From Methanobacteriota archaeon (GTDB taxonomy: Archaea > Thermoplasmatota > Poseidoniia > Poseidoniales > Thalassarchaeaceae), in the NCBI GenBank assembly GCA_014240285.1, contig JAAZXI010000001.1, positions 15,593 to 79,592 on the forward strand: a DNA stretch of 64,000 nucleotides. Direction: 5' to 3'. The notes under the pieces were generated by a model that was not told where the DNA came from, made no database searches, and worked only from the letters and a program-made list of their open reading frames with translations. Below, piece by piece: positions 3,023-36,773 of this stretch. Position numbers and translations under genes: made by a program. The first letter of the stretch is position 1; every line of letters starts with the position of its first letter.

Positions 3023-4750
3023 TTACTCAATAGCATTCAGCACAGGCTTCTCATCGCAGTGGAAGAAGGTCATCAGTGCCCACCAAGTAATCATATCAAG
3101 GCTGTTTACGAGATTCGAGACACCCGTGTTTTCCTCCCCGTAGTCCTTGCCGGTGGTGTCCATCCAATCCTCCATCTCATCCAGAGTGTCACAGGTCTGG
3201 TGGTAACACCAGTAGCCGTCGACCAGCCCTCCGAAACCCACAGTGACGGTGCCGAGGTTGTCCTGAAAGCTTGCATGATCACTCCTCGCAGTGGTGTCCT
3301 CGTAGACAATAATCTCAGGTCTGTCCATATCCATCCAGACATCAGTCTTCCATGTGTCTGCCGTGTAGTTCAACCCGACCAGTGTACCCATCTGCTCTTC
3401 AAGTCCGAGAGCATCTCCTCCTATCCATTGAGACAGCCCTACCATCCCTGGCTGGTCTAGACGGTCGTGGTTAGGTCCGGGGCCAATGTAAACCCGCATC
3501 GGCCAAACCTCGGAGTCCTTTGGGTAACCGTCCTCGTCGATTTGTGGGTCAGGATCTCCATGCGGTGCCCCACCCCCGCCGGGCCAGTTCACTCCAGCCA
3601 TGTCGAGATTGATGTAATTCGTGACCGTGACTTCAGGATGATCTTCCTTGACGTAATACTCTGTCCAGTAATCGGAACCACGCTTACCCCCCTCCTCTCC
3701 AGACCACAGGCAGAACACCATCGTCCGGCGCGACTCGAATCCAGCTAGGACCTTTGCAGTCTCCAAAACCATCGAGGTACCTGCTGTGTTGTCATAGGCA
3801 CCCACACGCGTGCCATAGGTTCTCGAGCCGGTTGTGTGTGGATCGAGTATGACGGCGTTGGCAGGCGGTGCAATATCGAAGTGTGCTCCGAATACCAACC
3901 ATTCATTGGGCGTCTCGGAACCCCATTTGTACGCGCAGACGTTGTACGCCTCAGGATTTTGAATGTTGAAGATGTCAGTAAACTCGAAGCGATGAGTCAT
4001 CACCTCTAATCCGAATGAATCTAATTCGGAAATGAGGTATTGAGCCGCATCCTCGTAGGCCGGGTTGCCCTGTCCGGCCCACCTGTCCCAGTAGCCGGAG
4101 CGGCCGTCTACGTCGAGAGCTAGGCTCGGGTCAGTGATTTCGTGCAGCCTGTCGTACACTATCCTACCATGCAGTAACCCACTGGAATGTGCACCACCCT
4201 GGTCAAGTCCTATGGTCTCTGGTCTGAGGGAGTCAACGGTCTTGGTTGAGACACGCCCACCCTGCTCGCTACTGTGGTTGACAGTGTCGAGTGTCGAGTT
4301 CTCATCATGGGCAACGCGCATCACACCGTTACCATCTTTCCCAGCGTCCCCTCCTCTCATCAACCAACTCATCCAGGACTCGCTGGCATCACGTGCAGGC
4401 CAATGCTCCCGCCCTCTTACTCCAACCATCAGTAGAACGCTATCTATCCTCGGCGGCGCGAGCAGTTCCAGGGTGACACTTGATCCGGAGGAGAGGTCAA
4501 TCACGGTTGAGTTCTGCACGTATCCAGTTGCTGGGTCGATGACCAAATATGGGACATAGACCGACATGGCGGCCTTGGCACTGAGTTCGACCTGCTGGAA
4601 TACTCCTGCCTCTAAGACCTCAGGATTAACGCTTAGACTAGATGCGTTCGCCGGACTCTCTTCTTCGGGGAATATGCACCCACCGAGCGGCGCTGAGACC
4701 ATCACAGCGACCAGCAGGAAGGCGATTCCACTTCGCGAGCGCACGCCCAT
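3023..4750 (-). CDS. secreted M28-family zinc aminopeptidase (lipoprotein-like signal)
   Basis: Signal peptide with LGGC lipobox-like motif. M28 hallmarks: FGAHFD, a GAYDNTAGTSMVLE-type segment, SGEEGG. Confidence 0.75.
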   Translation of the reverse strand: MGVRSRSGIAFLLVAVMVSAPLGGCIFPEEESPANASSLSVNPEVLEAGVFQQVELSAKAAMSVYVPYLVIDPATGYVQNSTVIDLSSGSSVTLELLAPPRIDSVLLMVGVRGREHWPARDASESWMSWLMRGGDAGKDGNGVMRVAHDENSTLDTVNHSSEQGGRVSTKTVDSLRPETIGLDQGGAHSSGLLHGRIVYDRLHEITDPSLALDVDGRSGYWDRWAGQGNPAYEDAAQYLISELDSFGLEVMTHRFEFTDIFNIQNPEAYNVCAYKWGSETPNEWLVFGAHFDIAPPANAVILDPHTTGSRTYGTRVGAYDNTAGTSMVLETAKVLAGFESRRTMVFCLWSGEEGGKRGSDYWTEYYVKEDHPEVTVTNYINLDMAGVNWPGGGGAPHGDPDPQIDEDGYPKDSEVWPMRVYIGPGPNHDRLDQPGMVGLSQWIGGDALGLEEQMGTLVGLNYTADTWKTDVWMDMDRPEIIVYEDTTARSDHASFQDNLGTVTVGFGGLVDGYWCYHQTCDTLDEMEDWMDTTGKDYGEENTGVSNLVNSLDMITWWALMTFFHCDEKPVLNAIE

Positions 4751-4781: not shown

Positions 4782-5477
4782 TCAGACTGACGGAGGCATC
4801 TGTATCTGAGTCGCTTCCTTCGGATCTTTCAGCACGAGGGCCAGAATGCCTCCAAGAAGTAGGAAGCAGACACCACAGCCGGAAAGACCCACTCCACCCA
4901 GAATCCCCATAACGCCACCTAAACCCCCGGTAACGCCTTCAACTAACTTCCCGAGAAGGTAATCATCGTTCGTAACCGAAACCTCCACATTCGACTCGAA
5001 TTCCATCGGTCCCGCGTAGCAAGCAAGGCAAGCTCTTCCCACTTTGATTAGACCTTCACCTTCTCTGTCACGATTCACGTTTTCTTCATCTGCCTCGCAC
5101 CCATCATACCACTCATTGACCTCGTAGTAGAATGAGCCATTTAGTTCTCGAGCATCTTCTCCGAACCACTCATCATCACTGATTTCAGGGTGTGATAGTA
5201 TGGTGATGTTTGTCGCTGCACAGTGGTCCCACCTTCCATCTCCATCCTCATCGAGGTACTCACCCTCAATCCAGAAGGTGAAACCCAGATCTCCCTTCCC
5301 GTCTTCGTCTGTCACATTGACCGTGCCTGAGTTAGCGTTCTCGATGGCAAAGTCATCCAAATCTTCGAATGAGTCTCCTACTTCTTCTAGGGTTTTTCCA
5401 CCCGAATTCGCCATCACAAGCCCGAGTACTAGAAACAATACTCCGAGCCCAAGGAATACCTTTCCAGCTACATGCAT
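4782..5477 (-). CDS. acidic membrane-anchored hypothetical protein
   Basis: N-terminal signal/TM, a D/E-rich ectodomain, and a C-terminal Gly-rich TM segment. Confidence 0.45.
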   Translation of the reverse strand: MHVAGKVFLGLGVLFLVLGLVMANSGGKTLEEVGDSFEDLDDFAIENANSGTVNVTDEDGKGDLGFTFWIEGEYLDEDGDGRWDHCAATNITILSHPEISDDEWFGEDARELNGSFYYEVNEWYDGCEADEENVNRDREGEGLIKVGRACLACYAGPMEFESNVEVSVTNDDYLLGKLVEGVTGGLGGVMGILGGVGLSGCGVCFLLLGGILALVLKDPKEATQIQMPPSV

Positions 5478-5521: not shown

Positions 5522-6337
5522 TCACCGGTTGAATACGGATAGGCAGGTCAGAGAACCATCGGCTTGCCTGATAGCGTCCATGTCGACACTGGTGATTGAG
5601 AAGCCAGCATCCAGCATGACCTGCCTCGTGGAGGCGTATCCGTCAGCGATGATCACGCGGTCACCCGAGTAGCCGATGGTGTTGGCCGCGTACGAGTCTG
5701 AGTTAGGGACCCACAGTATCTCTTCTGCCAGATGACCTATTTGTTTTGGAGTCAGGTGCCCCTCAGCTGCGAGCAGTGTACCCTCACGGGGTGAGGAGCA
5801 TACAGTGGTCAGGTGCAGTGTCGAGGAGGGGATATTGATGAGCTCCACATCGAAACCTTCCTCTCTGACCTGTTCAGTCAGAAAGGCCGCTCCAGCCTGA
5901 TTTGTGCGGGTTGAAACCCCAATCAGGTAACGGTCGTCGAAGAACACAACATCACCTCCGTCGAGGGTTGCGCCCTTTGGCATCCTGAGGATGTTGGAGC
6001 CTTCAGAGAGGTACTCGGCCACGGCCTCTTCCTCCCCCCTTCGGCTGGGCGCACCTAGATTGCTGATCAGAGCGACTCCGTCAATCATTACAGCGCAGTC
6101 CTCGACGAAGCAGCAGTCAGGATGAGTATCCAAGGCGTCTAGGACCTCAACATCCGTGCCATGCGCTCGGAGTGCCATCACGTACGCATCGTGGGAGCCC
6201 TGTGCGGCCACAGGATCGGGGGTTTGTGTGCCGAAATACTTTGATAAAGCTCTGTCAAAATTTGGGGAAACACGCCTCACAACAGCCGCGCGGCGACTTC
6301 TGTCGTAGGCTCCAGGCACGGCAGGCCGTCCGACCAA
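5522..6337 (-). CDS. dimethylarginine dimethylaminohydrolase (DDAH, amidinotransferase superfamily)
   Basis: The C-terminal catalytic-Cys motif GSLTCLSV matches the DDAH LTCCSV motif. Size is about 270 aa. Confidence 0.75.
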   Translation of the reverse strand: MVGRPAVPGAYDRSRRAAVVRRVSPNFDRALSKYFGTQTPDPVAAQGSHDAYVMALRAHGTDVEVLDALDTHPDCCFVEDCAVMIDGVALISNLGAPSRRGEEEAVAEYLSEGSNILRMPKGATLDGGDVVFFDDRYLIGVSTRTNQAGAAFLTEQVREEGFDVELINIPSSTLHLTTVCSSPREGTLLAAEGHLTPKQIGHLAEEILWVPNSDSYAANTIGYSGDRVIIADGYASTRQVMLDAGFSITSVDMDAIRQADGSLTCLSVFNR

Positions 6338-8140: not shown

Positions 8141-8767
8141 ATGGATTTCACCGCCTTCACACTAGTCTGCATCCCACTCTTGGTTGTGGTCAACCCTCCC
8201 GCTTCTCTCGCACTCTTCCTAACCTTAGGAAAGGATCTCGATAGGAGTGAATTGCGGACAATAGCTCGGCGTGCTTGCACATTTGCTGCTGTGGTCCTGA
8301 TGGTTTTCCTAGTATCTGGAGAAGACCTCCTTCATCACTTGGGAATAGAACTCTACAGTCTCCGTGTTGCTGGCGGTCTGATGCTCGGTATAGCAGGAAT
8401 CAATATGCTCAAAGAAGGGCAAAAACTCTCTAAGAAACAATTCTCACTTGATTCAGGAGACGAGATCTCAACTGATGAATTGATTGATTTCGGACTAGTA
8501 CCTATAGGAATGCCAATGCTCGCTGGCCCTGGTTCGATTAGTCTGATTATTCTCCTAGGAACTACCAACAGTGCACCGATGGTAGCGGGGGCAATCCTTC
8601 TAGTGATGCTGGTATCAATGCTGATATTCTATGTTGTTTCCAGCATGCAGCACGCCATAGGTGAGAACAGCACTAGAGTAATCACGCGTGTGATGGGCTT
8701 GCTCACGGTTACCATCGCAGTGCAGTACTTCTTCGATGGGTTAGAGGGCTGGTACCTCACACTTTGA
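8141..8767 (+). CDS. MarC-family (UPF0056) integral membrane protein
   Basis: About 200 aa with six TM segments and a MarC-like pattern (…LGTTNSAP…). Confidence 0.7.
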   Translation: MDFTAFTLVCIPLLVVVNPPASLALFLTLGKDLDRSELRTIARRACTFAAVVLMVFLVSGEDLLHHLGIELYSLRVAGGLMLGIAGINMLKEGQKLSKKQFSLDSGDEISTDELIDFGLVPIGMPMLAGPGSISLIILLGTTNSAPMVAGAILLVMLVSMLIFYVVSSMQHAIGENSTRVITRVMGLLTVTIAVQYFFDGLEGWYLTL

Positions 8768-8844
8768 TGGTGGACGTAGCGAGATTTGAACTCGCGGCCT
8801 CTTCGTTGCGAACGAAGCGATCTTCCAGGCTGATCTATACGCCC
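8768..8844 (-). tRNA. tRNA-Ala (anticodon CGC), CCA encoded
   Basis: Manual fold: 7-bp acceptor stem with G3:U70 (the Ala identity element), anticodon loop TTCGCAA, T-arm GCGAG-TTCAAAT-CTCGC, 3' ACCA. Confidence 0.85.
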
Positions 8845-8865
8845 TCGGTTCTATTCGCAGCCCGC

Positions 8866-8887
8866 CCGGCTTTAGTATTCACTAGCC
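8866..8887. repeat. 22-bp direct repeat, left copy (CCGGCTTTAGTATTCACTAGCC)
   Basis: 20 of 22 positions identical to the copy at 9829..9850. Confidence 0.6.
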
Positions 8888-8908
8888 TTATTTTCACCGT
8901 TCAGATTT

Positions 8909-9841
8909 CTAATCGGTTTTGACTCGATACGCAAATGGCACAGTCGAACCATATTTCACAAATTCATTGCTCGATGGATGCAAGAAACCGAGCGAAGTTG
9001 CATGTAAACAGATTCGGTTTAGAGGGTTCATTGTGGCCCCATGTACTATGTCGCCAACCACCGGACAGCCTAGAAATTGCATCGCCATTCGTATTTGGTG
9101 TCGGCGCCCAGTCTCTATTTTGATTTCAATCAAAGATACAAATTCATCTTGATCTTCAACTCGCCAATGCGTGATGGATTCTTTCGATCCTTTGAAGGTT
9201 GATTTGACACGTTTAACGTGCAGATGTTTGTCTTCCACAAGCCAAGATGAATCTATCCCTTCAGAATTTTTAGGTCTTCCCTCCACAAGGGCATGGTAGA
9301 CACGTTCTACATCACGTTGAGCAAATTGAGTCTGCAGAATTTCTTTAATTTCGTGATTTTTAGCAAATACCATGACCCCAGATGTATCACGGTCCAATCG
9401 ATGCACGATGTGGCACCATGCTCGCTCTGATTGGCGCTTTACATAATCCACACAGCGACTGTGTAGGGTATCATCCTCAAGCTTGTCTGTGGCGACAGAA
9501 AGTAGACCTGCTGGTTTTTCTACAACTAAAATAAAATCATCCTCGAACAGAATTTTCAATTTAGAAAATTGCCTTTTTGGCTTTGGTGGAGGTGATTTTT
9601 CCACCGCATCCGCGTGATTGATAACCTGTATTTCGTCGCCACTAACGAGCAATTCTTTGGCCCTATAAACCGGTGTTCCATTGACCAAAACTCTACCCTC
9701 TGTCAGCATTTTCCTCAATTTGGTTTTCGTCGATTGGGGGAACATCAACGCCAATGTAGGGAGTAGAAAACTCCCTTCTTTGACATTGAATTCCATATTG
9801 GGACCCCTCAGTCTGATTCTCAGGGCATCCGGCTTTAGCAT
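8909..9841 (-). CDS. RluA/RluD-family pseudouridine synthase with S4 domain
   Basis: HRLDRDTSG catalytic motif plus an N-terminal S4-like segment. The ORF is visibly AT-richer than its flanks. Confidence 0.8.
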   Translation of the reverse strand: MLKPDALRIRLRGPNMEFNVKEGSFLLPTLALMFPQSTKTKLRKMLTEGRVLVNGTPVYRAKELLVSGDEIQVINHADAVEKSPPPKPKRQFSKLKILFEDDFILVVEKPAGLLSVATDKLEDDTLHSRCVDYVKRQSERAWCHIVHRLDRDTSGVMVFAKNHEIKEILQTQFAQRDVERVYHALVEGRPKNSEGIDSSWLVEDKHLHVKRVKSTFKGSKESITHWRVEDQDEFVSLIEIKIETGRRHQIRMAMQFLGCPVVGDIVHGATMNPLNRICLHATSLGFLHPSSNEFVKYGSTVPFAYRVKTD

Positions 9842-9850
9842 TCACTAGTC
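9829..9850. repeat. 22-bp direct repeat, right copy (CCGGCTTTAGCATTCACTAGTC)
   Basis: It overlaps the stop of the esterase gene and the ATG of the RluA gene. Confidence 0.6.
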
Positions 9851-12019
9851 ATCATCGGCTCGTTGCCAGCCCAACCAACGCCGAACAGAGTCTGTGGTAG
9901 CCACCATGATGAACAGAGCTACCACTATGCCGCCTAGAAGCATCAGCGTGCGATCAACCTCCTCCTCCCACCGAGCGGCATCATTCGGGTAGAAGTCAAC
10001 ATTATCTCCAAACCCATCTCCATCAGAGTCCATCGTCTCATTAGGATCCAGGGGAAAAGCATCACTGTTGTCACCGACCCCATCTTCATCTGTGTCTAAC
10101 CATTCGTCTGCGTCGGAGGGAAACACGTCCATATTATCCCCAAACCCATCTCCATCAGAGTCTATCCATTCATTGGGGTCCTCTAGGAACGCGTCGGAGT
10201 TGTCGCCAACACCGTCTTCATCTGTGTCCAGCCATTCAGAAGCGTCTTCGGGAAAAGCGTCGGAATTGTCTCCAACACCATCCTCATCAAAATCGGACCA
10301 TTCCGAAGCATCTTGGGGAAACACATCACCGTTGTCACCGACCCCATCGAGATCACTGTCTACGGTCTCCAAATTATCATCCGGAAAAGCATCAGCATTG
10401 TCACCGACACCGTCTTCATCACTATCGTCCCACTCGCTTGCGTCCATCGGGAATTGATCGTCGACATCGGGGGCGCCGTCGCCGTCATCATCATTGTCCA
10501 CTACATCGCACTGCGAATCTCCGTCGCTGTCCACCGGAACCTCATCGGAATCCATCGGGTCAGTCAGGCAACTCGACTCGTCTGCGTCCGTCCACCCATC
10601 ATTATCGTCATCATTGTCAGCGTTGTCGCCAATCCCATCATTGTCGTTGTCTGAGTGCTCGGAAGCATCCAAACGAAAAGCATCCTCTGAATCCATCCAA
10701 CCGTCGTTGTCATCATCATCATCACTGTTGTCGCCGAAACCATCGCCGTCAGTGTCCACCCATTCATAGGGGTTCAAGGGAAAAGCATCCTCTGAATCCA
10801 TCCAACCGTCGTTGTCGTCATCTGGGTCGGAGTTGTCCCCCATTCCATCACCATCTGTGTCCTCCCACTCCATCGGATCACTTGGGAAAACATCCGAATT
10901 GTCCCCCACTCCATCACCATCTGTGTCCTCCCACTCCGTCGGATCACTTGGGAAAACATCCGAGTTATCTCCCACCAAATCGCCATCGGAATCGGCCCAC
11001 TCGTTCGGGTTGTAGATGAAGGCATCAACATCATCTCGGTAGTCGTCACCATCGGAATCGCGCACGAAGTCCTCTAGCGCCCACTCTAGTGACAGATTAG
11101 CCCACCCCGGGGCATTCATCGAGGGCGCGTGGCTGCCCCCGTTAATTCTCCAGTGCGACACCCTGTTGCCGTCGGCGCAGTTCAGATGCTCAAGCTCATC
11201 GGTCTCTGCAACATCATCAGAGCCGGTGATGTCGATGCTGCCGAGGTTTGTCCAACTCGCATCGCATCCCGATCTATCTGCCCAATACTCTGTTGATTCT
11301 GGTGCTGAAGGGTATGCCCCTCCCGTCAAGGTGCCTCCGTTGTACTGTATGACGCTGTCAGCTGTGCCGTGGACGTGCAGGATGTTTGGACTCCCTGTGT
11401 TCGGGCAGTCGTTTGAGAAATCCTCCCAAGTCGCTCCGTTTAGAGACACGATTGACTCGATGATACCACCCCTTTCACAAGCCATCCTGTGACTCATGAA
11501 AGCACCGTTGGAGTGCCCAATCAGTACCACACCCTCGGGGTCCGCCCCATAATTAAGGACAGCCTGATCAATCAGACTCTCGAGGAAACTCACATCGTCC
11601 ACCGAGGTCCCGAACAGGTTACAGCAGGCATTGGTAGCATTCCAGTACCGCATGGCTATGATATTCGAGGTACCGTCAGGGGTGATTAGAAGATGCTCAT
11701 TTTCGTGGACGCTGTCATACAAACTCATCCACGCGGCGTTGAGTGAGCCCCAACTAGAGTAACCATGCAAGGAGATGACCAGCGGCAACGGTCGGTCGTA
11801 AACGTGCCCCCCTGGCATAATCAGGGTGGCCGACCTGCCTTGCGAGGAAATCGTGGTAGTAGTGTGTTCATCGGTGTAGTTGATAGGGCCATAGCCATCG
11901 TTTGAGTCGGCCCATCGCCTATCTTCAGCCCCCCAAATCCCCTCCAGCTCGGAGCCAAATAACCCGGTCGCCACCAGCATCATGCAGACGAGAACCGGTG
12001 CGTAGAAGCGGGTGCTCAC
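9845..12019 (-). CDS. secreted alpha/beta-hydrolase (PHB-depolymerase/esterase-like) with about 18 thrombospondin type-3 Ca-binding repeats and a C-terminal TM anchor
   Basis: GHSNG nucleophile elbow, a long DxDxDGxGDNxD repeat array, and a C-terminal TM. The six-frame ORF (to 12289) runs through tRNA-Leu. The true start is therefore downstream of 12078; I placed it at about 12019 (V91 as a GTG start) or 11983 (M103). Confidence 0.7.
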   Translation of the reverse strand: MSTRFYAPVLVCMMLVATGLFGSELEGIWGAEDRRWADSNDGYGPINYTDEHTTTTISSQGRSATLIMPGGHVYDRPLPLVISLHGYSSWGSLNAAWMSLYDSVHENEHLLITPDGTSNIIAMRYWNATNACCNLFGTSVDDVSFLESLIDQAVLNYGADPEGVVLIGHSNGAFMSHRMACERGGIIESIVSLNGATWEDFSNDCPNTGSPNILHVHGTADSVIQYNGGTLTGGAYPSAPESTEYWADRSGCDASWTNLGSIDITGSDDVAETDELEHLNCADGNRVSHWRINGGSHAPSMNAPGWANLSLEWALEDFVRDSDGDDYRDDVDAFIYNPNEWADSDGDLVGDNSDVFPSDPTEWEDTDGDGVGDNSDVFPSDPMEWEDTDGDGMGDNSDPDDDNDGWMDSEDAFPLNPYEWVDTDGDGFGDNSDDDDDNDGWMDSEDAFRLDASEHSDNDNDGIGDNADNDDDNDGWTDADESSCLTDPMDSDEVPVDSDGDSQCDVVDNDDDGDGAPDVDDQFPMDASEWDDSDEDGVGDNADAFPDDNLETVDSDLDGVGDNGDVFPQDASEWSDFDEDGVGDNSDAFPEDASEWLDTDEDGVGDNSDAFLEDPNEWIDSDGDGFGDNMDVFPSDADEWLDTDEDGVGDNSDAFPLDPNETMDSDGDGFGDNVDFYPNDAARWEEEVDRTLMLLGGIVVALFIMVATTDSVRRWLGWQRADDD
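9920..11060. repeat. intragenic tandem repeats encoding the TSP3 motifs
   Basis: Periodic units of about 54-57 bp. They produce many spurious overlapping ORFs on both strands. Confidence 0.6.
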
Positions 12020-12077: not shown

Positions 12078-12162
12078 TGGTGCAGAGGACAGGATTTGAA
12101 CCTGCGAAGCACTACGCACTGGGACCTCATCCCAGCCCCTTTGACCACTCGGGTACCTCTGC
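12078..12162 (-). tRNA. tRNA-Leu (anticodon GAG), long variable arm, CCA encoded
   Basis: Manual fold: acceptor GCAGAGG/CCTCTGC, anticodon loop ATGAGGT, variable arm TGCGTAGTGCTTCGCA, T-arm GGTTCAAATCC. Length 85 nt. Confidence 0.85.
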
Positions 12163-35639: not shown

Positions 35640-36773
35640 CTAATCGACAAGCCACACCCGCAACCGCCGCAGACCCTCGTAAATGGCCTCCTCGTCGGTG
35701 GCGTACGAAATCCTGACGAAGCCCTCGCCACCGGTGATTAGTGAGGTCGGAATGAGTTGAACACCCGCTTCCAGCGCACCATCAGCGAACTCGATATCAG
35801 TCATGCCCGTACCAGTGACATCGACGAACACGTAGAACGCACCCTCGGGCTCAACAATCCTCAGTCCGGGCAACTCTGAGAGCCCGGCAGTCATTATCCC
35901 ACGCCGCTTCAGGTACTGTCGGTTGAATTCCTCGACCGAGTCGTCGCACCCTAGAGCAACTGCGGCTGCGTGCATCATGAATGTGGGGACGTGAGAGGCG
36001 GAGTTGGCCTGACTCTTGATAGCGGCGCGCATAGCATTCGGAGGACCGGTCAGGAAGCCCAATCTCATCCCCGTCATCGCCCAGGACTTCGACCAGCCGT
36101 TGACAATCAGAGTGCGCTCCGCGCCACCTGGGAGAGCATAGGGGGAGACGTGAGGGTAGTCCATCCAGACCAGTCTAGCATAGATCTCGTCGGAGACAAT
36201 CCAGAGGTCGTGCTCGACAGCGATGTCGACGATGGCCTGCAATTCGTCCGGGGTGAACACTGCTCCGGTGGGGTTGCAGGGGGAATTGACCAGTATCATT
36301 CGAGTCCTGTCGGTGACCGCGGCTCTGATGGCATCGATGTCGGGATGGAAGTTGTCCTTGCGAACCGGCACGTTCACCGGAACCGCCCCGATAAGCTCCA
36401 GCATCGGCTCGTACGAGGCCCAAGAGGGGGCTAGCAGAATTGCCTCGTCTCCCGGCATCGTGGTGATGAGGAACGAATACAGCAGCGCCTGCTTGGCGCC
36501 AGGCGTGATGACCACATCGTCTGCACCGACCTCGACAGAATGATGCCTTGCTAGGTAGTTGGACACCGCTTGGCACAGTTCCATCGAACCCGCACCCCTA
36601 GTGTACTTCGTGTTACCATCTTCCAGCCCCTTGATCGCCGCTTCGATGACCGCGCGCGGGGTGTCGAAACCAGGCTCTCCCACCGTCCAACGGATGACCC
36701 CGGGTTCTGGAGGTTGCAGATACGGCGCGAAGCCGACGCCAAGACCCTCGTAGCGAGAGGAAATCTCAGGCAT
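35640..36773 (-). CDS. class I PLP aminotransferase (aspartate aminotransferase-like)
   Basis: NGWSKSWAMTGMRLGF (SK…R motif). Confidence 0.8.
   Translation of the reverse strand: MPEISSRYEGLGVGFAPYLQPPEPGVIRWTVGEPGFDTPRAVIEAAIKGLEDGNTKYTRGAGSMELCQAVSNYLARHHSVEVGADDVVITPGAKQALLYSFLITTMPGDEAILLAPSWASYEPMLELIGAVPVNVPVRKDNFHPDIDAIRAAVTDRTRMILVNSPCNPTGAVFTPDELQAIVDIAVEHDLWIVSDEIYARLVWMDYPHVSPYALPGGAERTLIVNGWSKSWAMTGMRLGFLTGPPNAMRAAIKSQANSASHVPTFMMHAAAVALGCDDSVEEFNRQYLKRRGIMTAGLSELPGLRIVEPEGAFYVFVDVTGTGMTDIEFADGALEAGVQLIPTSLITGGEGFVRISYATDEEAIYEGLRRLRVWLVD

Follow-up and report, generated by a model that had tools for sequence, protein, structure and literature searches.

Direct repeats that flank a segment exactly are the mark of insertion sequence (IS) elements, transposons and casposons, whose target-site duplications measure 2-15 nt, can lie beside a tRNA gene, and come with terminal inverted repeats, a transposase or Cas1. 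Longer direct repeats of ~45 nt occur at tRNA genes with variable neighborhoods as the att sites of SSV-type and pNOB8-type elements (archaeal att cores include the 44-bp core of SSV1). A third kind of event, local promoter duplication or capture, is known from prokaryotes: copying over less than 1 kb leaves two adjacent genes with one copy each of a short regulatory segment, mobile-element genes are absent, and microhomology is found at the limits. Here we analyze a locus in a 64,000-nt stretch of an uncultured marine Methanobacteriota archaeon of the Thalassarchaeaceae (contig JAAZXI010000001.1, positions 15,593 to 79,592; hereafter the window), in which the gene of an RluA-family pseudouridine synthase (RluA) is flanked by two copies of a 46-nt direct repeat. 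The left copy lies immediately before tRNA-Ala(CGC) and the right copy lies between an esterase-like gene and RluA. We favor, with moderate confidence, an origin by gene relocation and promoter duplication, in which a tRNA-Ala promoter segment was duplicated locally after RluA had been placed at the site, over a fresh insertion. The event is a tidy example of the third kind, and it differs from the described cases in that a tRNA promoter would be reused for a protein-coding RNA-modification gene, in that the stop codon of the gene before it lies within the copy, and in that a parallel duplication, of another promoter-like box, brackets the same gene elsewhere.

The repeat pair and the tRNA-Ala upstream region

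A sequence-only reading of this DNA had reported two 22-bp copies flanking RluA, CCGGCTTTAGTATTCACTAGCC at 8866-8887 and CCGGCTTTAGCATTCACTAGTC at 9829-9850, identical at 20/22 positions, the right one containing the stop codon of the esterase gene; coordinates, identity, and the position of the TAG were all confirmed. The left 22-mer is separated from tRNA-Ala(CGC) by 21 nt. The repeat is longer than this: a repeat finder extends the pair in register, and a position-by-position count over the 46 nt (8842-8887 vs 9805-9850) gives 35/46 identical positions. The 24 nt past the 22-mer contribute 15 of these identities (P=2.8e-4), while the 12 nt outside each limit agree at 4/12 and 2/12 positions, which is chance level, and the similarity ends there. 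The distance between the copies is 963 nt, the inner end of the left copy covers the first three bases of the tRNA, and the limits of the repeat carry the microhomologies GAGGG and CTG. With up to 3 mismatches allowed, the 22-mer has just these two matches in the 64-kb window and none in 100 shuffles, and the tRNA-Ala core with up to 1 mismatch has no further site in Thalassarchaeum and related loci. The 22-mer is thus not a frequent intergenic motif, a possibility that the sequence-only reading had named against itself. The repeat finder detected no inverted repeats pairing the two ends of the segment. Scans of both copies for sigma-70 promoters and intrinsic terminators yielded nothing above shuffles, and neither copy has an RNA fold above shuffles, so the repeat is not a terminator or a structured RNA.

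A marC-based scan of species-representative genomes assigns the window to Candidatus (Ca.) Thalassarchaeum (Thalassarchaeaceae, Marine Group IIb, Poseidoniales). The left copy was compared with its counterparts in ~40 related loci, which were fetched by marC (a set including L007-L022), by RluA homologues, and by the tRNA-Ala 5' half in metagenomes; all comparisons below refer to the contigs obtained in this way. Its core GTGAATNCTAAA is invariant in 23 distinct tRNA-Ala upstream sequences (29 loci of Ca. Thalassarchaeum), in which it occupies -38 to -27 from the mature tRNA 5' end and stands 26 nt from the tRNA +1 (25 in two sequences of one group). Archaeal promoters place the B recognition element (BRE) and TATA box at about -38 to -24. 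The core is kept in at least five unrelated upstream contexts (RluA, a 104-aa open reading frame (ORF), an Era-like gene, a 652-aa ORF, and a 2150-aa ORF), the spacer that follows it is variable, and the sequence farther upstream is unrelated between contexts. The tRNA-Leu of the window likewise has an A/T box followed by GCCGG at a spacing equal to that of tRNA-Ala. A core at a fixed distance, combined with a variable spacer and unrelated upstream sequence, is characteristic of promoter elements. The left copy, which is conserved and linked to the tRNA, is taken here to be a putative tRNA-Ala(CGC) promoter composed of a BRE/TATA-like box and a 26-nt spacer.

The relationship of the right copy to this element was examined with a profile of the 44 nt upstream of tRNA-Ala, searched with nhmmer over ~0.45 Mb of related DNA. 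Significant matches outside tRNA contexts were limited to the region upstream of RluA in L010 (1.7e-8), the window and L034 (both 4.4e-6), and L041 (0.007). A weight matrix built from the 26-nt spacer alone, with the core left out, ranked these same four RluA-side sites 1-4 of 826,000 windows. Together, the E-values and the spacer-only ranks show the right copy to be a true paralogue of the putative tRNA-Ala promoter region, a case of sequence homology and not of a generic motif. Convergence, in which both sites bind one factor or fit a generic promoter grammar and no duplication occurred, has only a very small probability: the purP-RluA-tryptophan 2,3-dioxygenase (TDO) loci described below do have a loosely similar layout (a box and, 11-12 nt later, TGCGAA(A/T)), and the tRNA-Leu promoter also pairs an A/T box with GCCGG, but convergence would have to yield 35/46 identity including 15/24 in a poorly constrained spacer, as well as profile E-values down to 1e-8, and the loose pattern 'box-spacer-TGNGAA' occurs in the 64 kb only at the two repeats vs 0.42 sites expected (a post hoc test).

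The full right copy is found only in the window, L034, L010, and L041 (hereafter the long type). One core base is variable, being G in 4/4 RluA-side copies and A in all tRNA copies of the RluA-bearing loci; it is G (rarely T) in tRNA contexts lacking RluA. This consistent G/A difference indicates that the copies diverged before the species split, so the duplication is old and the copies have not been homogenized. Outside the esterase ORF, all four long-type loci share the 12-nt GAATGCTAAAGC, with no change among three independent long-type lineages, while the adjacent spacer varies. This is modest evidence that selection acts on the right copy, whose simplest and most likely role is that of a promoter for RluA. 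By analogy with the tRNA copy, transcription would start at ~9807-9815, giving a predicted 5' untranslated region of ~11-20 nt, which may or may not take in the Shine-Dalgarno-like box as a whole.

The RluA gene, its start and its composition

RluA resembles the bacterial RluD, RluC, and RluA enzymes in combining a PF00849 domain, which includes HRLDRDTSG, with an N-terminal S4 domain. The PF00849 match scores 116.6 bits (cut-off 26.8), PF01479 scores 24.4 bits, and TIGR00005 scores 213.1 bits, above its cut-off of 192.7. The HRLD motif with the catalytic Asp is present in the translation (...CHIVHRLDRDTSGVMVFAK...), in agreement with the consensus of the RluA family active site (PMC3753934), and the best match among solved structures is E. 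coli RluD (PDB 1v9f, 102 bits). Unlike the bacterial enzymes, the window protein reaches none of the NCBIfam equivalog cut-offs for RluD, RluC, RluA, and TruC (for the RluD equivalog NF008385 it scores 132.1 bits vs 351) and falls within a large clade of marine metagenome proteins. 'RluD-type', the Joint Genome Institute (JGI) name of its homologues, is accordingly a family-level label only. Judged from these matches, it is a bona fide RluA-family enzyme of the bacterial-type family. Among the matches listed (at least 120), the homologues share 75-93% identity with it, all come from marine metagenomes, align over 84-97% of the 310-aa ORF, and are mostly 297-298 aa long; the sole organism name among them is Ca. 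Thermoplasmatota archaeon. The bacterial-type family assignment of the sequence-only reading therefore holds and the bacterial source that it suggested does not, as the protein groups with archaeal homologues, the very outcome named beforehand as contradicting an import. By this affinity, RluA is a long-standing resident of these archaea and not a recent bacterial import. No paper dealing with RluA-family enzymes in Marine Group II, or with the promoters of this group, turned up in a literature search.

It had also been proposed that the repeat supplies the RluA start codon. In all 20 aligned loci, RluA begins at ATG-GAA-TTC-AAT-GT (MEFNV), which corresponds to the ATG at 9796-9794 of the window, and a conserved GGAGG-like box precedes this start by 7-8 nt. 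The ATG within the repeat (9841-9839) exists solely through the G at the variable core base, the same ATG precedes the tRNA in other lineages, and in L010 it is out of frame with the true RluA start, at a distance of 44 nt. The true start is the ATG at 9796-9794, and the repeat ATG is not a start codon.

The segment between the repeats is AT-richer than its surroundings, as had been stated: the GC content is 43.3% for the segment, 50.0% and 52.7% for the 1-kb flanks, and 56.3% for the window. RluA itself has a GC content of 43.2% and a GC content at third codon positions (GC3) of 0.395, compared with 0.560±0.044 and 0.625±0.073 for 50 long ORFs, among which its GC3 is the lowest (z=-3.2). The marC gene beyond tRNA-Ala is also low, with 48% GC and a GC content at four-fold sites (GC4) of 0.43 (0.55 for the adjacent aminotransferase gene), so the repeats do not bound the low-GC stretch, since low synonymous GC spans 8141-9841. 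In every Thalassarchaeum locus the GC3 of RluA is 0.35-0.42, despite 26-34% divergence at four-fold sites. This equals the GC3 of the purP-TDO genomes, in which the genes beside RluA have 0.32-0.49, and not that of the present host. These values support the view that RluA is compositionally foreign to its present host genome. Incomplete amelioration is plausible, because four-fold sites differ by just 0.26-0.34 among Thalassarchaeum lineages.

Related loci and the origin of the arrangement

The related loci fall into several arrangements. In the long type (window, L034, L010/L024, L041), the esterase gene is followed by the full right repeat, RluA, the left repeat, tRNA-Ala, and marC; L034 comes from the same species as the window (RluA 99.7%). 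The esterase of these loci ends ...WLGW(Q/K)..DDD* inside the repeat, and this long C-terminus occurs only with the full right repeat. Short-type loci with an intact tRNA (L060, with RluA 93%; L011/L025/L039/L040; L030; L047; L048) have the same gene order and lack the BRE/TATA-like half of the right copy. Their esterase ends ..GRRK* with TAA, followed by GCAGGCTG.CC.G.GAAT..GAC..GGAGGGG..AATATG. In a sister clade (L001-L004, L007-L009; RluA 87%), the region upstream of RluA is short-type, the tRNA promoter is absent, and the site of the tRNA is occupied by a ~40-nt stretch, agacatctagatggccttgaagagt / gttacatacacca (L001 5895-5937). Its 5' part is recognizable, ~39 nt are deleted internally relative to tRNA-Ala, and its final 13 nt agree with the 3' end of the tRNA at 10/13 positions, in register with the marC stop. 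The alignment of the whole stretch to tRNA-Ala is only suggestive (p=0.065), and the stretch is probably a decayed tRNA-Ala(CGC) remnant, with the tRNA lost at this locus.

RluA is absent from the site in L012 (esterase, 118-aa membrane ORF, marC), in L028 and L045 (esterase, 118-aa ORF, 104-aa ORF on the minus strand, promoter, tRNA-Ala), and in L050, L033, and L044, where the gene before the tRNA and its promoter is Era-like or is an ORF of 652 aa or 2150 aa. The identical arrangement is thus not universal among relatives, as the sequence-only reading had expected; an empty site with esterase, single repeat, and tRNA-Ala, which it had also foreseen, was not found in any of the ~40 loci. As an observation in its own right, the DNA upstream of the promoter is wholly different between close contigs (L023, L028, L029, L031, L033, L036, L037, L044, L045, L050), some of which lack marC and the aminotransferase gene; position -50 or so relative to tRNA-Ala is therefore a hotspot for breakpoints or islands. 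The neighbor-joining trees of marC and RluA (L001-L011, L047, L048) disagree, the tRNA-less clade receiving 100% support with RluA and 3.8% with marC. Similarly, esterase identity groups the window with L041, while RluA groups L041 with L010. Such disagreement points to a recombination mosaic across the locus.

In other lineages (RluA 76-83%, locus GC ~47%), RluA lies between purP, on the minus strand, and TDO, which is the setting of most of the nearest homologues. In seven such loci it is bracketed by another repeat, of 28-41 nt where measured, that contains AAGACATTCAAG; one copy lies ~50-60 nt before RluA and the other just after it, ~20 nt before the dioxygenase ATG. Four of these repeats are given in Table 1, and the others occur in L058, L061, and L062 (L061 and L062 are short contigs placed in this group by their flanking sequence). 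The upstream copies of L055, L061, and L062 contain GAAACCT(G)AACGGTG, a sequence that in the downstream copy comprises the last codons of RluA, its stop, and the first bases after it. The same 15-mer tail follows RluA in the window, and its presence in both contexts indicates that the tail belongs to the RluA unit. Since the upstream copy holds the RluA tail together with the promoter-like box of the next gene, this repeat also reflects local duplication and not target-site duplication. The unit common to both contexts extends from the Shine-Dalgarno region to ...ACGGTG (window ~9804 to 8895). A search of the long purP-RluA spacer of L055 for a second, decayed RluA copy recovered only the 41-nt repeat, with no tblastn match. 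The tRNA-upstream profile gives no match in the purP-TDO loci, and homology of the two repeats through a shared 'box-N11-TGCGAA' pattern is not claimed, the pattern having been designed after the fact. L005 and L006 share with the window no further gene by which the divergence of RluA could be calibrated.

Because related lineages hold RluA between purP and TDO and some Thalassarchaeum-like contigs lack it, these comparisons support relocation of RluA to the esterase/tRNA-Ala site, and we infer that it may have been transferred into Thalassarchaeum from a lower-GC relative. In the scenario that we favor, a ~0.9-kb RluA segment, resembling in composition and 3' tail the purP-RluA-TDO locus of lower-GC marine Thermoplasmatota, would have been placed directly upstream of tRNA-Ala. 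A local copying event would then have supplied the junction of RluA and the esterase gene with a paralogous tRNA-Ala promoter, probably by microhomology-mediated tandem duplication and loss of one RluA copy, or by a template switch. The right copy would now drive RluA from a predicted start that precedes the Shine-Dalgarno-like box and lies ~25 nt upstream of the ATG at 9796. Both the donor lineage and the copying mechanism in this scenario are deduced indirectly from the comparisons above.

Several points weigh against parts of this scenario. The equivalent of the tRNA +1 in the right copy (9807) falls inside the Shine-Dalgarno-like box, so that the promoter geometry is approximate only, and promoter function is a prediction for either copy. 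A de novo search for a promoter consensus in 35 upstream regions of the window produced no clear motif, the start calls being too uncertain. Most relatives, including L060 with its 93% identical RluA, keep RluA and lack the BRE/TATA-like half, so the right copy is dispensable. No significant RluA 3' remnant lies upstream of the right copy in the window, L010, or L041 (p=0.4-0.97), and a tandem duplication therefore lacks a direct trace at the window. Finally, a late gain of the core is favored by the RluA tree, which puts the short-type sister clade outside the 93%-supported tRNA-bearing clade that contains both states.

This last point bears on which state is ancestral, the short one, with the core added later, or the full duplication, with part of it later deleted; we weigh the two about equally. 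Parsimony on the tree favors late gain, with the short state in the sister clade and in 2/4 sublineages (long-type monophyly has 19-33% bootstrap and is not rejected), and the outgroup esterases end like the short type, which also points to late gain. Such a gain would amount to a templated patch of ~26-41 nt that added the core. On the other side are the G at the variable core base and the short-type upstream regions themselves, which align in register with the tRNA spacer (nhmmer E 36-85 over the whole search space, equivalent to ~1e-4 for one pre-specified place) and whose spacers score within the top ~30 of 826,000 windows with the weight matrix. Early full duplication is further favored because an untemplated insertion could not extend the identity by 11-13 nt by chance. 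Whichever state is ancestral, the right copy, judged by its similarity, derives from the tRNA promoter region.

The best-surviving alternative to relocation followed by local copying is a single step, in effect the insertion of the sequence-only reading set at an earlier time. In the genus ancestor, a promoter-less RluA would have inserted between the tRNA-Ala promoter and the tRNA, with ~46-nt staggered breaks filled in and the promoter duplicated as a result, and lineages lacking the 5' half would later have lost ~26-35 nt by deletion. This would account for an RluA segment, common to both contexts, that the copies bound almost exactly, for a repeat that ends at GAGGG, which belongs to both the tRNA start and the RluA Shine-Dalgarno region and could be junction microhomology, for a core base G equal to the state of most non-RluA tRNA promoters, and for the in-register resemblance of short-type upstream regions to the tRNA spacer. 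We nevertheless consider it unlikely. To our knowledge, 46 nt exceeds the target duplications of IS elements and casposons, and no known enzyme was found nearby; none of the ~40 loci has the esterase, promoter, and tRNA of an empty site. To explain the short state, the same deletion would have had to occur at least twice, or lineages would have had to recombine; outgroup esterase tails resemble that state, and the upstream copy of the purP-TDO loci holds the RluA tail, which is impossible for a target duplication.

The original proposal of the sequence-only reading was more specific, namely a recent insertion with target-site duplication into the esterase/tRNA-Ala spacer. What survives of it is a relocated, compositionally foreign RluA bracketed by a repeat. 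A recent age is contradicted by the occurrence of the arrangement in species whose RluA differs by 8-13%. As a target-site duplication, the repeat is too long at 46 nt vs 2-15 nt, it has no terminal inverted repeats, its copies are old and appear to be kept by selection, and in most relatives that share the gene order the right copy has no 5' half. Pfam calls in the syntenic 11 kb (L001-L004) comprise APH, MOSC, DUF6159, esterase, RluA, MarC, aminotransferase, HAD-like, DDAH, and peptidase M28, with no transposase, integrase, or Cas1, and the segment itself holds RluA only. The earlier statement that the window carries no integrase or transposase stands for these 11 kb, the rest of the window not having been scanned protein by protein. 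On these grounds, and with no empty site among the relatives, insertion of a transposon or IS element was rejected.

A more general version would cover both contexts. If a promoter-less RluA had settled at least twice before another gene through a dedicated mechanism, it would each time have become bracketed by a copy of the promoter-like region of that gene (28-46 nt where measured), tRNA-Ala here and TDO in related lineages; candidate mechanisms are an integrase with widely staggered cuts, as in Cas1-type enzymes, or template switches that start repeatedly from the RluA tail. We regard this as quite improbable. Were it true, it would represent an unrecognized way in which archaeal genes move and acquire promoters; otherwise, the two loci would reflect two independent accidents plus selection. 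Highly improbable, in turn, is that the repeats are the attL and attR remnants of an integrative element targeting tRNA-Ala, with RluA as its surviving cargo. The repeat does adjoin a tRNA gene and is about as long as archaeal att cores, and relatives differ strongly in the DNA that precedes the tRNA promoter. However, the repeat covers the promoter and not the tRNA body, which it overlaps by 3 nt, the syntenic 11 kb have no integrase call, the 0.94-kb segment encloses a single gene of housekeeping type, conserved in the related lineages that were sampled, and the other upstream contexts have no second repeat copy within their contigs. A scan of viral contigs with the 18-mer core gave 4 matches on contigs devoid of tRNA genes; in L052, the one examined, the match falls within a phage coding sequence, and we judged these matches to be due to chance. 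Att sites were rejected on the lack of an integrase call in these 11 kb, the 3-nt overlap, and the single enclosed gene.

Neighboring features and biological meaning

The features of the locus are collected in Table 1. In the esterase-like gene, the C-terminal extension ...WLGWQRADDD* stops within the right repeat, and 66-nt (22-aa) thrombospondin-type-3-like repeats run in series at 9995-11023. Its mechanical 814-aa ORF (to 12289) crosses tRNA-Leu(GAG) at 12078-12162, and the true start is probably the ATG at 11983 or 11980 (MMLVATG...). It is the fastest-evolving gene of the neighborhood, with 67-83% identity between relatives. On the other side, the class-III aminotransferase gene beside marC is, like marC, not on the minus strand. 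The marC stop TGA (8765-8767) abuts the encoded 3' CCA of tRNA-Ala (8768) with a zero-nucleotide spacer, and no terminator-like sequence was found at this junction. In other Thalassarchaeaceae/Poseidoniales genera (marC 60-67%), an opposite-strand tRNA-Ser(CGA) or tRNA-Arg(TCG) abuts the marC 3' end (L014 and L022 6632-6717; L017 6632-6708; L018 6636-6706). Elsewhere in the window, ARAGORN calls a tRNA-Ile(GAT) at 35741-35822, with the anticodon at position 40 and within the span of the ORF 35640-36773; the Rfam tRNA model has no match there, and the call is probably a false positive.

Table 1. Coordinates of the features of the RluA locus in the window and, in the last four rows, of the repeats bracketing RluA in purP-RluA-TDO loci
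Feature	Position	Strand	Remarks
marC-family membrane protein gene	8141..8767	+	PF01914 142 bits; convergent with tRNA-Ala
tRNA-Ala(CGC)	8768..8844	-	CCA encoded; ARAGORN; Rfam RF00005 64.3 bits
Left repeat copy, putative tRNA-Ala(CGC) promoter region	8842..8887	-	-43 to +3 vs mature 5' end
BRE/TATA-like core GTGAATACTAAA of left copy	8882-8871	-	
RluA tail GAAATCTGAACGGTG	8909-8895	-	conserved with homologues in other genomic context
RluA-family pseudouridine synthase, 295 aa	8909..9796	-	PF00849, PF01479; N-terminal S4 domain
Shine-Dalgarno-like GAGGGG before RluA	9809-9804	-	
Right repeat copy, paralogue of the putative tRNA-Ala promoter region	9805..9850	-	before RluA
Core GTGAATGCTAAA of right copy	9845-9834	-	
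Non-functional ATG inside right copy	9841-9839	-	
Esterase stop TAG inside right copy	9847-9845	-	
Esterase-like protein, secreted or membrane-anchored	9845..11983	-	PF02230; start uncertain
Repeat in L006	4940-4971 / 5912-5943		32 nt, 81%, spacing 972
Repeat in L057	2955-2982 / 3927-3954		28 nt, 86%
Repeat in L005	4934-4965 / 5908-5939		32 nt, 75%
Repeat in L055	3917-3956 / 4888-4928		41 nt, 85%, E=2e-8

These results leave the current understanding of mobile elements and of pseudouridine synthases unchanged. The promoters of Marine Group II are essentially uncharacterized, and the box at a fixed distance from tRNA-Ala provides a concrete candidate promoter element for them. Its copy before an RNA-modification gene would be a clean natural example of promoter reuse. 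The locus of this abundant ocean archaeon also appears to be dynamic, with the probable loss of a tRNA, a hypervariable upstream region, and apparent transfer between lineages that differ in GC content.

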